The notes below the pieces were generated by a model, which was given only the letters and a program-made list of their open reading frames with translations, was not told the DNA's origin and made no database searches. DNA of 60,027 bases, the filler included. It is 4 parts of 4 records of this genome, joined end to end, with 100 filler letters (N's around TTAATTAATTAA, not from the genome) between each part and the next. Parts side by side here need not be neighbours in the genome. Positions count along the whole stretch, not along the records: positions 19,444 to 42,798 come from SRR31156797_6626; 3 more parts are not named here. The stretch is one strand, 5' to 3'. The stretch's first letter is position 1, and each line of letters opens with the position of its first letter. The position numbers and the translations under genes are program-made. Below are positions 3,633-38,849 of the stretch, one piece after another.

Positions 3633-4082
3633 CTATTTTTCGATATAGATCTCCTGCTCGGCGAAATAAAATGAACCCTTATGCGCCCAGTCCACTTTAA
3701 CAACATATTTTCCTTTATCCAAAGCACTATTGGGTATCCGTTGAAATCCCTCCGGATCAGGTTTTACCAGAATAAAAACATCTTTAACCCCGGACGACGG
3801 CCTGAACAATTGTATTTCTCCTGTTAAGCTATCGTAATTAAAAAGATCGGGGAATTTTATCTCAATCCAACCATTTTCGTTTTTAATGGTCAACCGCTCT
3901 TTTAACCCGAAAGCATTGTTCCGTTTTTCAATCATACTCTGGTGTGCCAACTCACGTGGATAATAATCCTCATGAACCAGGTTAATGCTGTTATTAAAAG
4001 CATAATATACCAGCGTTCCCATGGCCACCATAAAAAGGAATAATACCAACGCAATCCCTGTTCCCCAGTTAAATTTTATCAT
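3633..4082 (-). CDS. ccoH: FixH/CcoH family protein
   Basis: NWGTGI N-terminal TM, DYY..EL, LFRPS motifs; follows ccoG. Confidence 0.85.
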   Translation of the reverse strand: MIKFNWGTGIALVLFLFMVAMGTLVYYAFNNSINLVHEDYYPRELAHQSMIEKRNNAFGLKERLTIKNENGWIEIKFPDLFNYDSLTGEIQLFRPSSGVKDVFILVKPDPEGFQRIPNSALDKGKYVVKVDWAHKGSFYFAEQEIYIEK

Positions 4083-4094
4083 TAATAAATTGGT

Positions 4095-5498
4095 TTAGTT
4101 TGGTCCCACAAAGGTAACATCAATTTCCTCGATCAGTTCATCACCGCTGTATACACCAAGGGTAATGGGTATTTTATCCTGAACTTTATCCCGGTCGAGG
4201 TAAACGAAAAACACGCCTTCTGTTGATCTGGCACCTTTTACCACAAGATCACCAGCAGGAATTAATATTTTACCCTCATGCGACAGGAGTTTAATATCTA
4301 TGGTAAAATCCTCCCGCTTTTTATTCACCACCTTGATGTTGTAGAGGTTACTTATCTGGTTGTTATCCTGTTCCTGGTAGAGCATACCCGGAGTTCGCAG
4401 GATTGTGGTTTCCACATCAGGCCTGCTAAACAGAAGATAATTGAGAAATCCAAATAATACAACCAGTACCACGATGTAAGCGATAAGCCTGCCGTTAAGT
4501 TTCAGTTTTGATCCGGTGGAAATACTCCGCTCAGAATCAAAACGGATAAGGCCTTTGGGCAGGCCAACACGTTTCATGGTATTGTTGCAGGCATCAATAC
4601 AGGCAGTACAGTTTACACATTCCAACTGTGTTCCATTTCTAATATCAATAGCTGTAGGACACACCTGGATACATGCTTTACAATCCACACAATCACCTTT
4701 TCCTTCAGCTTTTCGGTCTTCACCTTTTTTATAGGGTGCGCGTTTTTCGCCCCTGTTATAATCATAGGCCACAACGATGCTGTTCTTATCAAGCAACACG
4801 CCCTGGAGTCTGCCATAAGGGCAGAGAATAACACAAACCTGTTCCCGGAACCAACTGTAAATAAACAGCAAAAAACCTGTTAAAATAGTTAATGCAATCA
4901 ATGCTGCACTGTTTTCAGCAAATGGCTGACCAAGCAGGTCGATCAGATTATCCAGGCCAATAACCCAGGCAAATAAGGTAAGTGCGATCAGATGAGCAAT
5001 GGCTATAAAAATGATGTATTTCAAAAGCCGTTTCCAAAACTTTTGGAATGTCATGGGGCCTTTGGCTAGCTTACGCTGTTTAGCTCCGTCTCCATCAATC
5101 CAAAATTCTATTTTACGAAATACCATCTCAAGGAATATGGTTTGGGGACATGCCCAACCACACCAAAAACGGCCCAACGCTACCGTGAATACCACGATAA
5201 AAACAATGAGGGTAAGCATCATCACAGCAAAAATGTAGGTATCCTGGGGCCAGAAAATCTGGCCGAAAATGATGAATTTCCGGTGTATCACATCAATTAA
5301 AAATAATGGTTCACCGTTCATTTTCAGGAAAGGCATCCCAAAAAAGAAAATCAATAATATCCAGGAAACCATTAACCTGTAGTTGTGTAACTTGCCTTTT
5401 GGCCTTTTGGGATAAACATATTCACGATTACCATCCTGGTTTATCGTTGCAATACTGTCCCTGAATGATTCATCTGATTTTGGCCCGGATTCAGTCAT
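4095..5498 (-). CDS. ccoG: cbb3 oxidase accessory ferredoxin-like protein CcoG
   Basis: GRFWCGWACPQT, CPYGRLQ, CVDCKACIQVCP and ECVNCTACIDAC motifs. Confidence 0.96.
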   Translation of the reverse strand: MTESGPKSDESFRDSIATINQDGNREYVYPKRPKGKLHNYRLMVSWILLIFFFGMPFLKMNGEPLFLIDVIHRKFIIFGQIFWPQDTYIFAVMMLTLIVFIVVFTVALGRFWCGWACPQTIFLEMVFRKIEFWIDGDGAKQRKLAKGPMTFQKFWKRLLKYIIFIAIAHLIALTLFAWVIGLDNLIDLLGQPFAENSAALIALTILTGFLLFIYSWFREQVCVILCPYGRLQGVLLDKNSIVVAYDYNRGEKRAPYKKGEDRKAEGKGDCVDCKACIQVCPTAIDIRNGTQLECVNCTACIDACNNTMKRVGLPKGLIRFDSERSISTGSKLKLNGRLIAYIVVLVVLFGFLNYLLFSRPDVETTILRTPGMLYQEQDNNQISNLYNIKVVNKKREDFTIDIKLLSHEGKILIPAGDLVVKGARSTEGVFFVYLDRDKVQDKIPITLGVYSGDELIEEIDVTFVGPN

Positions 5499-5539
5499 AG
5501 TTTTTTCTCAAGGTCATTGATTTCATTTTTTTTAAATAA

Positions 5540-5587
5540 CCAAACCCCGACAAATCACCTCATGCAATCAGCATTGTCAGGGTTTGG
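5540..5587 (-). terminator. intercistronic hairpin between ccoP and ccoG
   Basis: minus strand CCAAACCCTGACAA...TTGTCGGGGTTTGG, 14-bp stem with one G-U pair, followed by TTATTT. Confidence 0.5.
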
Positions 5588-5615
5588 ATTGTTACTGAAG
5601 CTTGCAAAACTGATC

Positions 5616-6209
5616 CTAATTAATTAATTCCCCCTGTGGATCTTTTTGATTTGGTGGGTTTGTCCCCACCAGGCTCAGCACATAACTCCCCACCTCTACT
5701 ATCTGTTCCTGTGTTAACTGATCCTTATAAGGTGTCATTCCTTTGGTTGGCACACCATTATAAATCACATTGTAAACATCTTCGATGGTATTTCCATGGA
5801 TGAAGTAATTATCCGTAAGGTTTGGACCAATGGCGTTACCCTCGCCTTGCATGCCATGGCATGTAACACAAAGTTTTTCTTTAAAAATTGCTTCCCCGGC
5901 CGCCAGATCTTCTTCTGATGTCAAAAGCACCATTTCGGTAGTTGAGGTTTCTGATTTATGTTTTTCAACGTTCACGCCGGCTTCTGCCATTTGCGCAGCA
6001 TATTCTTCGTCCTGGGTTAACCCAACATCATAAACATGATAATATACAAAGTAAATAACTGAAAAAACAACCGTGATGTACCAGATATACATCAGCCACG
6101 GCGGAATGGGATTGTTTAATTCTTTAATTCCGTCGAATTCGTAATCTAATGGCTTACCATCGTATTTTGGCTTATATGAGTTTTCTTCTTTATATGAATT
6201 TTCTTCCAT
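5616..6209 (-). CDS. ccoP: cbb3 oxidase subunit III, short monohaem CcoP
   Basis: FDGIKELNNPIPPW N-terminal motif, single CVTCH, IGPNLTD. Confidence 0.92.
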   Translation of the reverse strand: MEENSYKEENSYKPKYDGKPLDYEFDGIKELNNPIPPWLMYIWYITVVFSVIYFVYYHVYDVGLTQDEEYAAQMAEAGVNVEKHKSETSTTEMVLLTSEEDLAAGEAIFKEKLCVTCHGMQGEGNAIGPNLTDNYFIHGNTIEDVYNVIYNGVPTKGMTPYKDQLTQEQIVEVGSYVLSLVGTNPPNQKDPQGELIN

Positions 6210-16288: not shown

Positions 16289-17113
16289 ATGAAAACTCAT
16301 ACAATACTATTAGCGTTTTTCCTGGCAGCAAACCTGTCGTTCGGACAGGCTCTGCACAAGGAGCGAACAGCAGACTCACCATCCTCATCCTTTAAAAACA
16401 CAACAGAAATCAGCAATGTCGGCGATTTCACCGTGGTGGACTCGGACGGGATAACCTGGAATCTTTACACACTCCTCGAAGGAGGTACAACTATTATTCT
16501 GGACCTGTTCCAGAGTACGTGAGGCTCGTGCCAGGCATATGCTCCAATTTTAGAAGAAGTATATGTCAACTGGGGAGAAGGTAACGCGGATGTACAAATG
16601 ATCGGCCTCACACCTTACGATACCGATGAAGTAATTAATGAATACAAAGCCCAATTTGGGATAACCAATCCATGTGCAGGCCAGGAAGGCGGATCAGGTG
16701 ATGCTATTGCAACCATTATTGACGGGCAGCCATTTTTCGGGTACCCGACATATTGTGTGATTTGCCCGGATAAGAAGATGAATTTCAATGTGTGCTTCCC
16801 TCCTACTCCCGAATGTTTTGATGATTTCATTTTTGGATGCGGAGCTACATCAAATGAGGAGATTCAGGCCGATACGGAAGTTTCGATCTATCCCAATCCG
16901 GCCGGTAACCTGTTTACGTTGAGTCTTGGGAATGTTCAGCCAGATCGCGTTGAAATCATGGATATGCTGGGAAAAACAGTAAAAACCATCCGCACGGACG
17001 GGCTTAATCAGCACATGGCTATTGGGGTAAACGATCTGAAAAGCGGGTTGTATTTTATCCGGATTACCGACACCAGCGGTCAGATTATCACAAAAAAACT
17101 GACCATCAAATAA
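16289..17113 (+). CDS. candidate selenoprotein: signal peptide + TlpA/thioredoxin-like domain (UxxC) + T9SS type A sorting domain, 274 aa
   Basis: ORFs 16289-16522 and 16598-17113 are in one frame, interrupted only by TGA 16520-16522, giving DLFQST-U-GSCQAYAP; C-terminus SIYPNP...LKSGLYFIRI...TKKLTIK. Confidence 0.82.
16534..16567 (+). promoter_or_regulatory. candidate SECIS-like hairpin
   Basis: GGCATATGCT/AGTATATGTC 10-bp stem (2 G-U pairs), 14-nt loop, starting 11 nt after the UGA. Confidence 0.45.
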
Positions 17114-32977: not shown

Positions 32978-33283
32978 TTATTTGCTATCTAGTATTTCTC
33001 TCACTATCTTACCAAGAGTGTTGACAGCATACGGCTTTTGAATAAAGGTTTTTACACCATGTTTCAATGCCTCCTGTGCTGTTCCATCCTCAGAATACCC
33101 GCTCGCAAGAATGATTTTGATATCAGGGCAGAGAGCAAACAGTTGTTTAGCCGTTTCCAACCCGGATATACCTGGATCCATAATCATATCGAGGATAACG
33201 AGATCCACAAACTCTTCTTTTAAGTATTCAATGGCCTTTTCTCCGCTGCTTAAGGCTAGAGCATCATAATCAAGCCCTTGCAA
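32978..33283 (-). pseudogene. C-terminal receiver (REC) domain fragment
   Basis: DLVILDMIMDPGISG, ILASGY, FIQKPY; lacks the N-terminal strand with the acidic pair. Confidence 0.7.
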
Positions 33284-33812
33284 GCTCTATAACATCAAGG
33301 CCGCTTTGCATCATTGTGCTGACTGGCAACAGAAAGCTAGAAGCTGAACCTCGATCCTCAAAAGCAATTTTTTTACCTGAAAGATCTTTTAGAGTAGAAA
33401 TACCGCTATCTTTTCTGGTTATAAAAAGGGTGTGGTACTTGCTACCCCCTTTTTTCCAGCGTAAAAGTATAATTTCGGCACCAGCTTTTTTTTCAAAAAT
33501 GGCAGTTGAAAATGGTGTTTCTGTTATCCAATCGATCTTGCCCTGTTTCAAAAAATTGACAACTTGTCGATTATTTTTAGCAAATTGAATTTTCCCCTGG
33601 GTTATGCCAAGATGACCAAGTTTGCTGACAGCGTAGTCGAGAATGGGTTTAAGCTGTTTGTAATGTTTTTGGGGTTTTTCAGATACCCTGCATAATATCA
33701 GGGTTTTTTTACGGTCTGAAGCGGTAGCTTGGTCATCGGCTGTAAAACCAAATTTTCCATTTGAAATGGTAATCAAAAATACAGTGAAAAATATGAGGAT
33801 ATTTTTCTTCAT
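33270..33812 (-). pseudogene. truncated PhnD/phosphonate-binding-type periplasmic domain
   Basis: signal peptide; YHTLFITRKDSGISTLKDLSGKKIAFEDRGSAS; ends mid-domain at 180 aa. Confidence 0.65.
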
Positions 33813-35267: not shown

Positions 35268-36839
35268 TCACCGTTGTTTATTATAATTATGTTCGACCTG
35301 TAGTGCTTGGGGTTTAATCGCATCGCGATGAAATGATGGGTGAAAAAAGGGTGCATGGTTGGAAGAAAAAAATGGTGGGTCTCTGTGCACAATCGGGGCT
35401 ATGTTTGGATGGCGTTTGAATTCTTTGTCAAGGAAGGAGCGGATGTTTTTTCTATTCCATCCTTTTGGGTGACTGAAGTTGCAATACAGGGAGAGGTCGC
35501 CTTCGTAGAAGTCATCGACCCTGACGGTTTGTGCATCCAGACCAAAAATGGGCATGTTAAAGATGGCCAGGTTAAGAAAGGTAATGGCGCTATGGTGCCG
35601 GGCTGTGAAGGCCAGGGTGTCCCTGGCTTCCGGGAGTGATTCACTGGGCGTGCCGAATAAGAGGTAAACATATGTTGCAATCCCTGCCTGTTCAAGAGCA
35701 CACAGCGTCTGGGAAACCAGCTCAAGGGTGATGCCTTTATGCATGGTGTTGAGTACCTGCTGGTTGCCTGATTCTAATCCCAACTTGAGCATGACGCAGC
35801 CGGATTGTCGTAATTTCTTGCAGTACTCGGGGTCTGCGAGATATGGGGCAACCCGTGCAAAACCATACCAGGGAACCCCGGTTGGGCGGTCGATGAGTAT
35901 GTTCATCAGTGCCGGAGAGAGAGCGTTGTCAAGAAAATGGAACAGGGCTGGGTGGTGCTGTTGGTTGAGGTGTTCCAGGTCGGAGGCTATCTGGTTGGGT
36001 GGGATTTGATGGTAATGGTTGCCTTCAGCAACTTCAGGGCAGAATGAGCATTTGTTCCAGTAGCAGCCAGATGAGGCTGCATAGGGCATGACAGTCCCTG
36101 GTGAAAGGTAGTTTGTAAGGGTGAGTTTTGTATAATCAGGCGGTGCCGCAGTTTTGTACTCAGTATTAAGCAGCTTGAGCAAAGGAGCCTCTCCTCTGCC
36201 TGTTACCCAGTGATCCACCAGATCTGCAAAGGGATTTTTCCATCCGGGCTGACTTAGCCAGGAGGTGACCAGTCCACCACCTACAATGATGGTTACATCT
36301 GGGAAGCATTCCCGTATAAAGCCTATCATGGCAAAGGTGGTATTTGCCTGGCTCAGGTAATTGAGTGAAAAACCAACATGGGTAAAGGAGTGGTCTGCAA
36401 AGAGTTGCTCAAGCCGTTGTTTGAAGTAGGGAAAATAGATGTTGTGTTGGTAGATTGTCGCTGCAGTGCGGAGGTCATTGCTGCGAAGCGGGGAAACTCT
36501 CTGGTCCTGGTAATTTACAAGGCTGAGTGAGATTTCTTTTTGTGGAACGGATTGTTCCATAACTCGGTTCAGATCACGAACAACCCTTTGGTAGCGATCC
36601 TGATTGCTGAATAGGGAAAGATCTTGTAAGGCATCGATATTTTGACTGAGATTGCGTTCAGCCCGTTTTGACCACGTATCTTCAGGAATGCGGTCGCGTT
36701 CGGTGAGGTAGTGCAAGCCTTCGATGTTGGCATCAAGTATATCGCACCTCTGTCCATGGGCTTTCAGTGTACCTGCCAACTGGGCGATGCCTGCAGGCGG
36801 TTCTCCTGGTTTAGCAACAGGCGGATAGATAAGGAGCAT
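35268..36839 (-). CDS. B12-binding-type radical SAM protein
   Basis: LLIYPP..EPPAGIA N-terminus, IIVGGG, GCYWNKCSFC (CX3CX2C), GLESG, YLLFGTPSE. Confidence 0.9.
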   Translation of the reverse strand: MLLIYPPVAKPGEPPAGIAQLAGTLKAHGQRCDILDANIEGLHYLTERDRIPEDTWSKRAERNLSQNIDALQDLSLFSNQDRYQRVVRDLNRVMEQSVPQKEISLSLVNYQDQRVSPLRSNDLRTAATIYQHNIYFPYFKQRLEQLFADHSFTHVGFSLNYLSQANTTFAMIGFIRECFPDVTIIVGGGLVTSWLSQPGWKNPFADLVDHWVTGRGEAPLLKLLNTEYKTAAPPDYTKLTLTNYLSPGTVMPYAASSGCYWNKCSFCPEVAEGNHYHQIPPNQIASDLEHLNQQHHPALFHFLDNALSPALMNILIDRPTGVPWYGFARVAPYLADPEYCKKLRQSGCVMLKLGLESGNQQVLNTMHKGITLELVSQTLCALEQAGIATYVYLLFGTPSESLPEARDTLAFTARHHSAITFLNLAIFNMPIFGLDAQTVRVDDFYEGDLSLYCNFSHPKGWNRKNIRSFLDKEFKRHPNIAPIVHRDPPFFSSNHAPFFHPSFHRDAIKPQALQVEHNYNKQR

Positions 36840-36886
36840 GTGTGTAATGATGGTGTTGTTTTAACAACCGTAAAAAAGAAAACTGT

Positions 36887-37249
36887 TCAGGCTTGTTCTG
36901 TCGGCAATCCCATTTCATGCCATTTGTCAACGCCTTGTGGATAGCGAAAAAGGTTCGTATAGCCAATTTGTGCGGCCACCCGGGCCGTGAATATGCTTCG
37001 TATTCACGAAGGACCGTCTCAGTAAAAAGCGATAGGTCGATTGAGATCAGGGCCAAGCAGGGTCCGTAAAGATCTCTTTCTCAGTAATTTACTCCACCAA
37101 GTGGGCTTCATCGGAAAAGATGCCGCCCCCTTAATATGCCTTTGCAGGTACTTCACACTATCGCGAAGATCAACAATCAGCAGCTTTTTATCCTGAAGCT
37201 GTCGGGCATGGAGTGTTTCTGCAGCGATGTCATTATAAAATTGTTCCAT
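36887..37249 (-). CDS. candidate double-selenocysteine rhodanese, 120 aa (FY-U-DGPS-U-IRS)
   Basis: IVDLRD..Y..RHIKGA; in-frame TGA at 37019-37021 and 37004-37006; frame continues AAQIGYTNLFRYPQGVDKWHEMGLPTEQA*. Confidence 0.82.
36973..36987 (-). promoter_or_regulatory. candidate bacterial SECIS apical hairpin
   Basis: minus strand CGGCC-CGGGT-GGCCG; loop starts 21 nt after UGA2 and 36 nt after UGA1, with G at loop position 2. Confidence 0.5.
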
Positions 37250-37262
37250 AAGCACTTCGACG

Positions 37263-38849
37263 TTAGACCGACTCGCGGGTTGTGTGGAAAACGATGTCTG
37301 GGAACAGTTCCATGGTATGGGACAAGCGCCACATACCATCGGCCAGGTAGGAAAGATGACCTTCTGCATCAAAAGCCAGGTTTGCCTGATTTTTTTTCTC
37401 AAATTCCCTTAATTGCAGCTTGTTTTCACTGGTAACCCAGCGGGCAAGAGAAAAGTTCATGGGGACATATTCGGCATCGACCCCATATTCAGCTTTCAGG
37501 CGGGTCATGGTTACCTCAAACTGTAACACACCTACAGCCCCAAGCACATAATCATTGCCTATAAGAGGCCGAAAGAGCTGCACTGCCCCTTCTTCGGCCA
37601 TCTGGGTCAATCCTTTTTGCAGCTGCTTGATTTTGAGCGGGTTTCTCAGGATAACTTTGCGGAAATGTTCCGGGGCAAAATTGGGTATGCCGGTAAACTT
37701 CAGCTCTTCCTTGTCGGTAAAGGTATCGCCGATTTTAATGGTGCCGTGATTGTGGATGCCGATAATGTCACCAGGATAGGCTTCTTCCACGTTTTCCCTG
37801 TTTTGGGCCATGAAGACCGTTGCATTGCTGAGGCTTATATCTTTGCCCAGGCGATGGTGCTTCACTCGCATACCACGGGTGAACTTGCCGGAGCAGATTC
37901 GAAAAAAAGCAATACGGTCCCGGTGGGCAGGGTCCATGTTGGCCTGGATTTTAAAGGTAAATCCTGAAAAAGCTGTTTCTTCTGGTGATACCTCCCGGCT
38001 CTGGGTTGGCCTTGGCCCAGGTGACGGAGACAGCTCTACAAACGCATCAAGCAGCTCCCGGACCCCGAAGTTGTTAATGGCGCTGCCAAAAAAAACAGGG
38101 GTCTGGCTGGCTTTGAGATACTCGTCGTATTCAAACGGATTGGCAGCCCCTTCAAGAAGTTCTATATCCTCACGGAGTTTGTCAGCATCAACGCCAAGCA
38201 GTTCGTCAAGCTTGCTATCGTTAATGTCAGAAACCACGGTATGGTCTTCAGGTCGGGTATCCTGGCTGGGCGTAAACAGGTTGAGTTCTTTGCGGTACAG
38301 GTTGTACACTCCCTTAAATCGTTTGCCCATTCCAATGGGCCATGAGAGGGGAGCACATTCGATCTGCAGCTTTTCTTCAATATCTGCAAGGATGTCCAGC
38401 GGGTCAAGACCATCGCGGTCGAGTTTGTTGATAAAGGTAATGATTGGGGTGTTGCGCATTCTACAGACTTCCATCAATTTGGTTGTCTGCGTTTCAACCC
38501 CCTTGGCACTGTCAATAACCATCAAAGCACTATCAACCGCTGTGAGTACCCGGTAAGTATCTTCAGAGAAATCCTGGTGACCGGGAGTATCTAGAAGATT
38601 GATTTCATAATCGTGGTAATTAAATTTCATGACCGAGGTTGTCACAGAAATTCCACGATCTTTTTCAATCGCCATCCAGTCACTGAGGGCATGATTGGAG
38701 GTCTTTCTTGATTTTACCGCACCGGCCATCTGGATGGCCCCGCCAAAGAGCAGTAACTTTTCAGTCAGGGTTGTTTTACCAGCATCGGGATGGCTGATAA
38801 TGCCGAAGGTTCTGCGCTTTTCTATTTCGTTAAGGAATTTACCGCTCAC
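37263..38849 (-). CDS. prfC: peptide chain release factor 3
   Basis: [52 protein letters not shown]. Confidence 0.98.

Follow-up and report, generated by a model that had tools for sequence, protein, structure and literature searches.

A stand-alone rhodanese, very probably with two selenocysteines, hidden behind two in-frame UGA codons

Introduction

What protein is encoded where gene callers find only a 76-residue fragment between prfC and a radical SAM (S-adenosylmethionine) gene? The question was raised by a stretch of 60,027 nucleotides, in which four parts of one genome's records are joined end to end with filler letters between them (the window, below), and more precisely by its minus strand at 36887-37249, within the part from SRR31156797_6626. 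A first-pass annotation of this locus, made from the letters alone, had seen a rhodanese frame that ran on through two TGA codons, and had proposed that selenocysteine (Sec, U) stands at both cysteines of the active-site loop, as U-x4-U. Computational follow-up, with homologues, genomes of the same order and public sequencing runs, indicates that the feature is real, a hidden rhodanese that very probably contains two selenocysteines.

A Rhodanese Frame That Continues Through Two UGA Codons

The minus-strand frame starts at the ATG at 37249, 13 nt past the stop codon of prfC, and reads MEQFYNDI...RPIAFY-U-DGPS-U-IRSIFTARVAAQIGYTNLFRYPQGVDKWHEMGLPTEQA, that is, 120 codons followed by a terminator that is also a TGA (36889-36887). 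The in-frame TGA codons are codon 77 (UGA1, 37021-37019) and codon 82 (UGA2, 37006-37004), and translation with table 11 ends the open reading frame (ORF) at ...RPIAFY. The start codon is common to all eight close database homologues (MEQ/MEK/MNQ...), and the coordinates first given for the gene and its two hairpins, the distances of 21 and 36 nt from hairpin to UGA and the interval of 47 nt before the radical SAM gene were all found to be exact. That the frame might continue past its terminal TGA into the radical SAM gene could be excluded, because the two frames differ and the relative L001 has another stop codon there. Opposite-strand ORFs of 51-99 aa at the locus overlap real genes.

That the read-through product is a rhodanese is supported by a match to the Pfam Rhodanese profile (PF00581) over residues 15-112, both TGAs included, with an E-value of 2e-14 and a score of 54.3 bits against a gathering score of 22.2. 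An AlphaFold2 model of the product, built on a 43-row alignment, was confident throughout (predicted local distance difference test score, pLDDT, 96.9; predicted template modelling score, pTM, 0.90) and had a strand at residues 73-76, a loop at 77-82 and a helix at 83-95. Given these boundaries, the two TGAs correspond to the first residue of the active-site loop, right after the strand, and to its final residue, ahead of the helix. The top Foldseek matches of the model were ordinary single-domain rhodaneses, with a template modelling score of about 0.7 and no closer structural relative in that search, while a sequence search of the PDB returned a single weak match, 6mxv (E 1.9e-6), which lacks the second cysteine (Cys).

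Our preferred reading, to which we give a probability of roughly 80%, is of a free-standing, single-domain rhodanese, probably cytoplasmic judging from its sequence, in which Sec77 and Sec82 replace both Cys of the FYC-x4-C-xRS loop of an extended rhodanese family, with insertion through SelB and a selenocysteine insertion sequence (SECIS).

Conservation of Both Sites

The residues opposite the two UGA codons were tabulated in 157 database proteins (translated locus L002 included), each aligned to the query by its best BLASTP segment. Cys stood at both sites in 111 of them, so that the Cys-type subgroup with FYCxGxxCxRS, which the first-pass annotation had named, was seen directly; 18 proteins ended exactly at residue 76, and the remainder comprised 11 with Cys and a gap, five with Cys and Gly, three with Gly and Cys, three with Ser and Cys, and six further combinations found once each. 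Pairing of Sec with Cys in homologues, as is looked for in bacterial selenoproteins, was thus found at both sites. Among the close homologues found by a word search (71-82% identity), all eight are 76-aa truncations at the same codon, and one of them, from Desulfogranum marinum, bears the NCBI name 'rhodanese-like domain-containing protein'. With ten more distant database homologues also predicted as the 76-aa fragment, the family as a whole calls for an annotation correction.

Genes with TGA at both sites were likewise recovered. Stand-alone genes from other assemblies keep both codons at 82% (L001), 75% (L012), 54% (L013) and 52% (L044) identity to the window, as do 27 of 27 inspected loci in which the rhodanese is fused into the larger protein TsoB, treated below. 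When 301 genomes belonging to the order of relative G001 were searched with read-through of stops allowed, the best 33 matches all had two TGAs, and in the final alignment both TGAs were present in 32 of 32 sequences, at identities down to about 40%. Conservation of the UGA codons was accompanied by purifying selection on the frame 3' of UGA1: among the window gene, L001, L012 and L013, the ratio of nonsynonymous to synonymous substitution rates (dN/dS) was 0.23-0.41 over codons 78-120 and 0.16-0.46 over codons 1-76, and no frameshifts or further stops were found past UGA1 in any of these four genes. The proposal of Sec at both loop cysteines gained support from two of the outcomes that had been named as its tests, the residues at the two sites and selection after the first TGA.

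Since TGA ends 17 of the 51 large ORFs in the window, the codon has not been reassigned genome-wide. The machinery for its local recoding was sought in three relatives that carry the stand-alone gene (G001, G213 and G052): selA and selD were above cut-off in all three, each selD having one in-frame TGA of its own, tRNA-Sec was above the Rfam cut-off in two, and selB was above cut-off in G001, the sole carrier tested for it. It was above cut-off as well in G002, from which L002 comes and which has a TsoB fusion and not the stand-alone gene.

Hairpins near the UGA Codons

A gap-free alignment of 78 nt around both UGAs was made for the 32 sequences, namely the four stand-alone genes linked to prfC, plus L044 and 27 fusions. 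Hairpin B of this alignment pairs columns 43-48 with 54-59 in a stem of 5-6 bp, the five inner pairs of which are minus-strand positions 36987-36973 of the window (CGGCC, loop CGGGU, GGCCG), and 98.4% of its cells are paired. It lies in codons for ...TARVAA... in the window and ...AARVAV... in TsoB. The pair 45-57 is GC in 17 sequences, AU in 12, and CG, GU and UA in one each, and is unpaired in none. As both of its columns are third positions of Ala codons, the protein sequence does not dictate this pair, and its types would require at least three separate double changes on a FastTree tree. Two other four-fold degenerate sites of the stem do not vary at all (GCC in 32/32, GTG in 32/32), and the Arg codon of the loop is CGG in 29/32, the loop being CGUGU in the other three; the four-fold sites outside both hairpins (columns 15, 18, 21, 24, 42, 60 and 69) show three or four bases each.

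The position of hairpin B also fits that of a SECIS. The bacterial model, as set out in the available part of PMC13188914, has a loop of 3-9 nt with a G within its first two positions, at 16-37 nt from the UGA. Hairpin B conforms to this geometry, its loop beginning 21 nt past UGA2 and 36 nt past UGA1, the latter at the edge of the range, and the suggestion that one GC hairpin might serve both codons is supported to the extent that the element is conserved, SECIS-like and within the published distance of UGA2 and, barely, of UGA1. For selD in the three relatives, the SECIS begins 12 nt past the UGA and its loop some 20 nt past it, a spacing that matches that of hairpin B relative to UGA2.

The second hairpin of the window, hairpin A (36996-37011, minus strand; CUUCGU, loop GAAU, ACGAAG), has UGA2 in its apex and is specific to the stand-alone lineage. 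It has a folding energy of -5.4 kcal/mol, equalled by one of 200 shuffled sequences, and its stem, CUUCG(U)/(A)CGAAG, is identical in the window, L001, L012 and L013, although L013 differs from the others by a synonymous divergence (dS) above 1. Its loop begins 13 nt past UGA1. Fusion-type genes have another second hairpin, A' (GAGUC/GACUC, columns 26-30 and 37-41), which is 93.8% paired, incorporates the G and A of UGA2 into its stem, and has a loop that begins 18 nt past UGA1; the third position of the Val codon in this stem is C in 27 of 28 rows.

The locus was also looked up in public sequencing runs. Contigs of run X1, which may be the source run, are identical to the window, and relatives at 80-90% identity occur in runs X2, X3 and X4. 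One DNA contig of X4, over 36604-37490, covers the rhodanese gene together with the neighbouring ends of prfC and of the radical SAM gene. Among the 40 differences listed, of 182 over the four runs, none falls in 36968-37032, which contains both TGAs and both hairpins, and this is at most a hint that the stretch is strongly conserved at the nucleotide level.

Several results weigh against two selenocysteines at this locus, or against the hairpins as their SECIS elements. The Sec machinery described above is that of G001, G213 and G052, which are relatives of the window's own organism, and ARAGORN found no tRNA gene in the window. Site 1 is Gly or Ser in six of the 157 homologues, so the loop residues are not universally required, and in the fusion L002, which scores as a TsoB, the two sites read GGA (Gly) and CGA (Arg). 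Folding energy is not distinctive, with z-scores of -0.10 for a 62-nt region and -0.64 for hairpin B, and because these single-sequence values are non-significant the case for hairpin B is wholly one of comparison across sequences; nor did any Rfam family match in the window. UGA1 is poorly served, since hairpin A at 13 nt falls below the range of 16-37 nt and hairpin B at 36 nt lies at its edge, and we found no experimental precedent for a single bacterial SECIS that serves two UGAs. The sole RNA support is one short metatranscriptome contig of a relative, covering 36962-37090, and it has no bearing on translation.

As to L002 itself (3863-5623, plus strand), it scores 899.5 bits against a cut-off of 805 for TsoB, both of its substituted codons are one base from TGA, and in the tree it is nested within the TsoB clade. 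Both Sec may have been lost secondarily in it, or it may be an inactive copy or an artefact of assembly.

A Probable Sister Lineage of the TsoB Rhodanese Domain

The best NCBIfam match of the window rhodanese is TsoB, NF045694, at 4e-36 and 124.3 bits, far below the cut-off of 805 and limited to profile positions 43-158 of 572. TsoB is listed as 'rhodanese-like form 5, UxxxxU, 2 Sec' in a 2026 review (PMC13188914) that cites Haft and Tolstoy 2025, and by virtue of that listing the U-x4-U rhodanese motif is already known; the curated NCBI model, too, treats the TsoB motif as selenocysteine. The difference lies in the free-standing architecture.

The similarities to TsoB are extensive. Both have a rhodanese with FYU-x4-U-[VI]RS, at about 40-45% identity, the fusion loop being FYU-AGL[TA]-U-VRSD, both have hairpin B, and both occur in the same bacterial order. 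TsoB, however, is a protein of about 580 aa in which an N-terminal hydrophobic anchor is followed by the rhodanese, then by a membrane domain of the DsbD type with its two Cys, and lastly by a thioredoxin (WCxPC) at the C-terminus, whereas the window protein is a lone 120-aa domain that starts at the domain boundary and has no signal anchor or hydrophobic leader, no DsbD domain and no thioredoxin domain. Its frame ends at 36887 and the next gene lies in another frame; by comparison, loci L028, L017 and L002 score 1003.5, 922.1 and 899.5 bits against NF045694. The hairpin near UGA2 also stands in a different register in the two types. Nor is the gene part of a Tso operon: tsoA adjoins tsoB in G111 and G293, and the neighbours of the window rhodanese are prfC and the radical SAM gene. 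No TsoB above cut-off and no TsoA match were found in the carriers G001, G213 and G052, and no LU[LIVMA]AxC motif was found in the long frames of the window. What had been taken for DsbD-like proteins with one TGA in G001 and G213 turned out to be two adjacent genes parted by a normal stop.

A tree of the domains, made with FastTree only and from 102 columns, and thus by a quick method on a short alignment, had two clades, one of the 28 fusion domains (support, on the Shimodaira-Hasegawa-like scale, 99) and one of the four genes linked to prfC (support 97), with L044 apart, so that the stand-alone genes are not nested within the TsoB clade. In one of the alignments (A2) the row of L012 had been cut 19 residues late, past its stop, and that of L013 was treated alike in the NF045694 scoring; the results cited here are unaffected. 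On these sequence data, the stand-alone rhodanese is best read as a sister lineage of the TsoB rhodanese domain with which it shares the loop and hairpin B. The U-x4-U module of TsoB would then also exist free, probably in the cytoplasm, outside the Tso operon, and as a small soluble protein of 13 kDa it offers a model for the chemistry of a two-selenocysteine rhodanese loop.

L044 (1330-1719, plus strand), a stand-alone U-DGPQ-U rhodanese on a metagenome contig, was the single real relative in the metagenome scan; three further candidates (L045-L047) were dropped, as their matches covered just 15 residues. A large ORF lies upstream of L044, neither prfC nor a radical SAM gene was seen, and L044 is of the fusion type in both its downstream sequence (VRSD...) and its hairpin.

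Other rhodanese selenoproteins are more remote. Single-Sec rhodanese-related sulfurtransferases are described as forms 1-4 in the part of PMC13188914 at hand, and a two-Sec rhodanese with UxU was reported in 2007 from Olavius symbionts, according to the portion of PMC1976440 available. As far as these sources go, they share with the window protein the use of Sec for the catalytic Cys and an occurrence in anaerobes of the Deltaproteobacteria type, and they give a nearby second Sec a precedent; compared by description, their motifs (UxxS, UxxG, CxU, UxU) differ from the window protein, in which the Sec residues are five apart, at the two ends of the loop. In the Cys-type rhodaneses of the tabulation, Cys takes the place of Sec at both ends of the same loop; their identity to the window protein is at most 43%, and no solved structure is close in sequence. 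They include TIGR03865 ('PQQ-dependent catabolism-associated CXXCW motif protein'), which gave a weak match (E 1.3e-9, residues 58-120).

Rhodanese matches with one in-frame TGA, within open frames of about 450-470 aa, recur across many genomes of the order (for example G001:C25:4359-4685, G052:C15:68521-68844 and G213:C166:102538-102864), and probably belong to a different, single-Sec selenoprotein that contains a rhodanese.

Gene Neighbours and Alternative Explanations

Upstream of the rhodanese gene and co-oriented with it is prfC, for release factor 3 (37263-38849, minus strand; NF001964, 855 bits against a cut-off of 473), and downstream, also co-oriented, is a B12-binding radical SAM gene of no named family (35268-36839, minus strand), the ATG of which, at 36839, lies 47 nt past the rhodanese stop. 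Gaps of just 13 and 47 nt separate the three genes, and neither contains a terminator-like site. The first-pass annotation had proposed that the rhodanese might be the carrier of sulfur or selenium for the radical SAM enzyme. L001, L012 and L013 do have the prfC-rhodanese-radical SAM order, and the X4 contig covers, at about 89% identity, the 5' end of the radical SAM gene, the rhodanese gene and the 3' end of prfC. Such synteny is weak evidence, because the carriers are close relatives with prfC 92-98% identical, and the proposal was not supported when more genomes were examined. A single-copy ortholog of the radical SAM gene (52-86% identity) is present in 191 of 301 genomes of the order, as against three of 301 for the stand-alone rhodanese (three of 119 in the family). 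Of 20 radical SAM loci inspected with 1.5 kb of flank, two had the rhodanese, 15 had neither neighbour, and three (L053, L057 and L064) had prfC directly upstream, 58-70 nt away, and no rhodanese. As prfC abuts the radical SAM gene elsewhere in this way, the rhodanese seems to have been inserted into a pair of prfC and radical SAM genes older than itself, rather than to form half of a dedicated partnership, and the stand-alone gene L044 has a different upstream neighbour altogether. The radical SAM protein, to which the Atlas gives a generic name only, has a B12-binding domain and matches PhpK, a C-methyltransferase of ribosomally synthesized and post-translationally modified peptides, BchE and HpnJ, all far below cut-offs; these are all B12-binding families of the methyltransferase or cyclase type, and no sulfur-inserting family was among its matches. 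From the insertion pattern and these family matches, we regard the dedicated carrier as improbable, though it survives better than the explanations that follow.

A second alternative accepts the full-length protein and disputes its residues. If the UGAs were read as Cys or another standard amino acid, for instance by a Cys-charged tRNA-Sec-like tRNA delivered by SelB, the result would be a conventional rhodanese of the Cys-x4-Cys kind, in keeping with the commonest state of its homologues (Cys/Cys in 111/157). Cys-charged tRNA-Sec-like tRNAs exist in some anaerobes, and the evidence on Sec machinery is from relatives and not from the window's organism. These relatives, however, have selA and selD, with an in-frame TGA in selD itself, two of the three have a tRNA-Sec above the Rfam cut-off, and the curated NCBI model takes the TsoB motif for selenocysteine, all of which leaves decoding as Cys with little to recommend it.

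Less probable still is that the TGAs are true stops, in a decayed pseudogene or a gene for the 76-aa N-terminal fragment only, which is the product given by gene callers and by one NCBI-named record. This fragment would lack the active-site loop and half of the fold, and the explanation does not account for purifying selection on the 43 downstream codons, which are free of stops and frameshifts in four genes, for retention of both TGAs in 32 sequences at identities down to about 40%, or for covariation of synonymous sites within the hairpin.

The weakest explanation, of a selenium-sensing leader in which termination at UGA1 under scarce Sec-tRNA lowers radical SAM expression, would suit an ORF set closely between a termination factor gene and a radical SAM gene with no terminator-like site, but we think it very unlikely, as the ORF encodes a whole enzyme domain that folds confidently and is under selection, and as the same loop and hairpin sit inside the 580-aa TsoB proteins, where a leader role is impossible.

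Proposed Decoding and Chemistry

On the preferred reading of a two-selenocysteine rhodanese, both UGA codons would be recoded by the SelB/SECIS pathway, with hairpin B as the putative SECIS of UGA2, and with either hairpin B, at 36 nt, or the lineage-specific hairpin A acting on UGA1. Sec77, at the canonical catalytic position, would be the nucleophile, and Sec82, at the end of the loop and the N-terminus of the helix, its resolving partner. The pair could then alternate between a diselenol state and one joined within the molecule by a diselenide or an Se-S-Se bridge. In TsoB, the rhodanese appears to occupy the place of the N-terminal, substrate-facing domain of DsbD with its terminal redox-active pair, and its Sec residues would be redox-active and re-reduced through the thioredoxin domain, for which the free-standing protein would require a soluble reductant.

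More tentatively, tandem SelB-binding hairpins, used in succession, might decode the two Sec codons five apart and so yield a cytoplasmic, diselenide-forming rhodanese; we hold this specific scheme to be possible and, for now, rather doubtful. In TsoB, the ribosome would melt hairpin A' en route to UGA2, whereupon hairpin B would be in position. In the stand-alone lineage, either the first hairpin would have been rebuilt in another register, at 13 nt, or hairpin B would act by itself at 36 nt, and either case, if true, would be an unusual spacing rule for a bacterial SelB. With UGAs 15 nt apart, one conserved hairpin and one lineage-specific hairpin, these genes constitute a natural test of how strictly SelB outside Escherichia coli holds to UGA-SECIS spacing.

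Further Observations in the Window

A second candidate selenoprotein lies at 16289-17113 (plus strand), with a TGA at 16520-16522 that would give T-U-G-S-C in a thioredoxin-like part of a protein with a signal peptide and a C-terminal sorting domain of the type IX secretion system (TIGR04183, 52.8 bits). Table 11 calls just its 171-aa tail (16598-17113), and most of its 39 database homologues are likewise 169-172 aa, starting past the TGA at the next Met; in six of six full-length homologues the TGA aligns with the first Cys of a CxxC. No convincing SECIS was found for it by single-sequence folding (z -1.18). This candidate lends indirect support to the decoding of UGA as Sec in the window's organism.

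Closer to the rhodanese, a 180-aa ORF at 33270-33812 (minus strand) matches positions 7-135 of 242 of the phosphonate-binding-protein domain PF12974, and its end is overlapped by a 101-aa ORF at 32978-33283 (minus strand); the two may be a single split or frameshifted gene.

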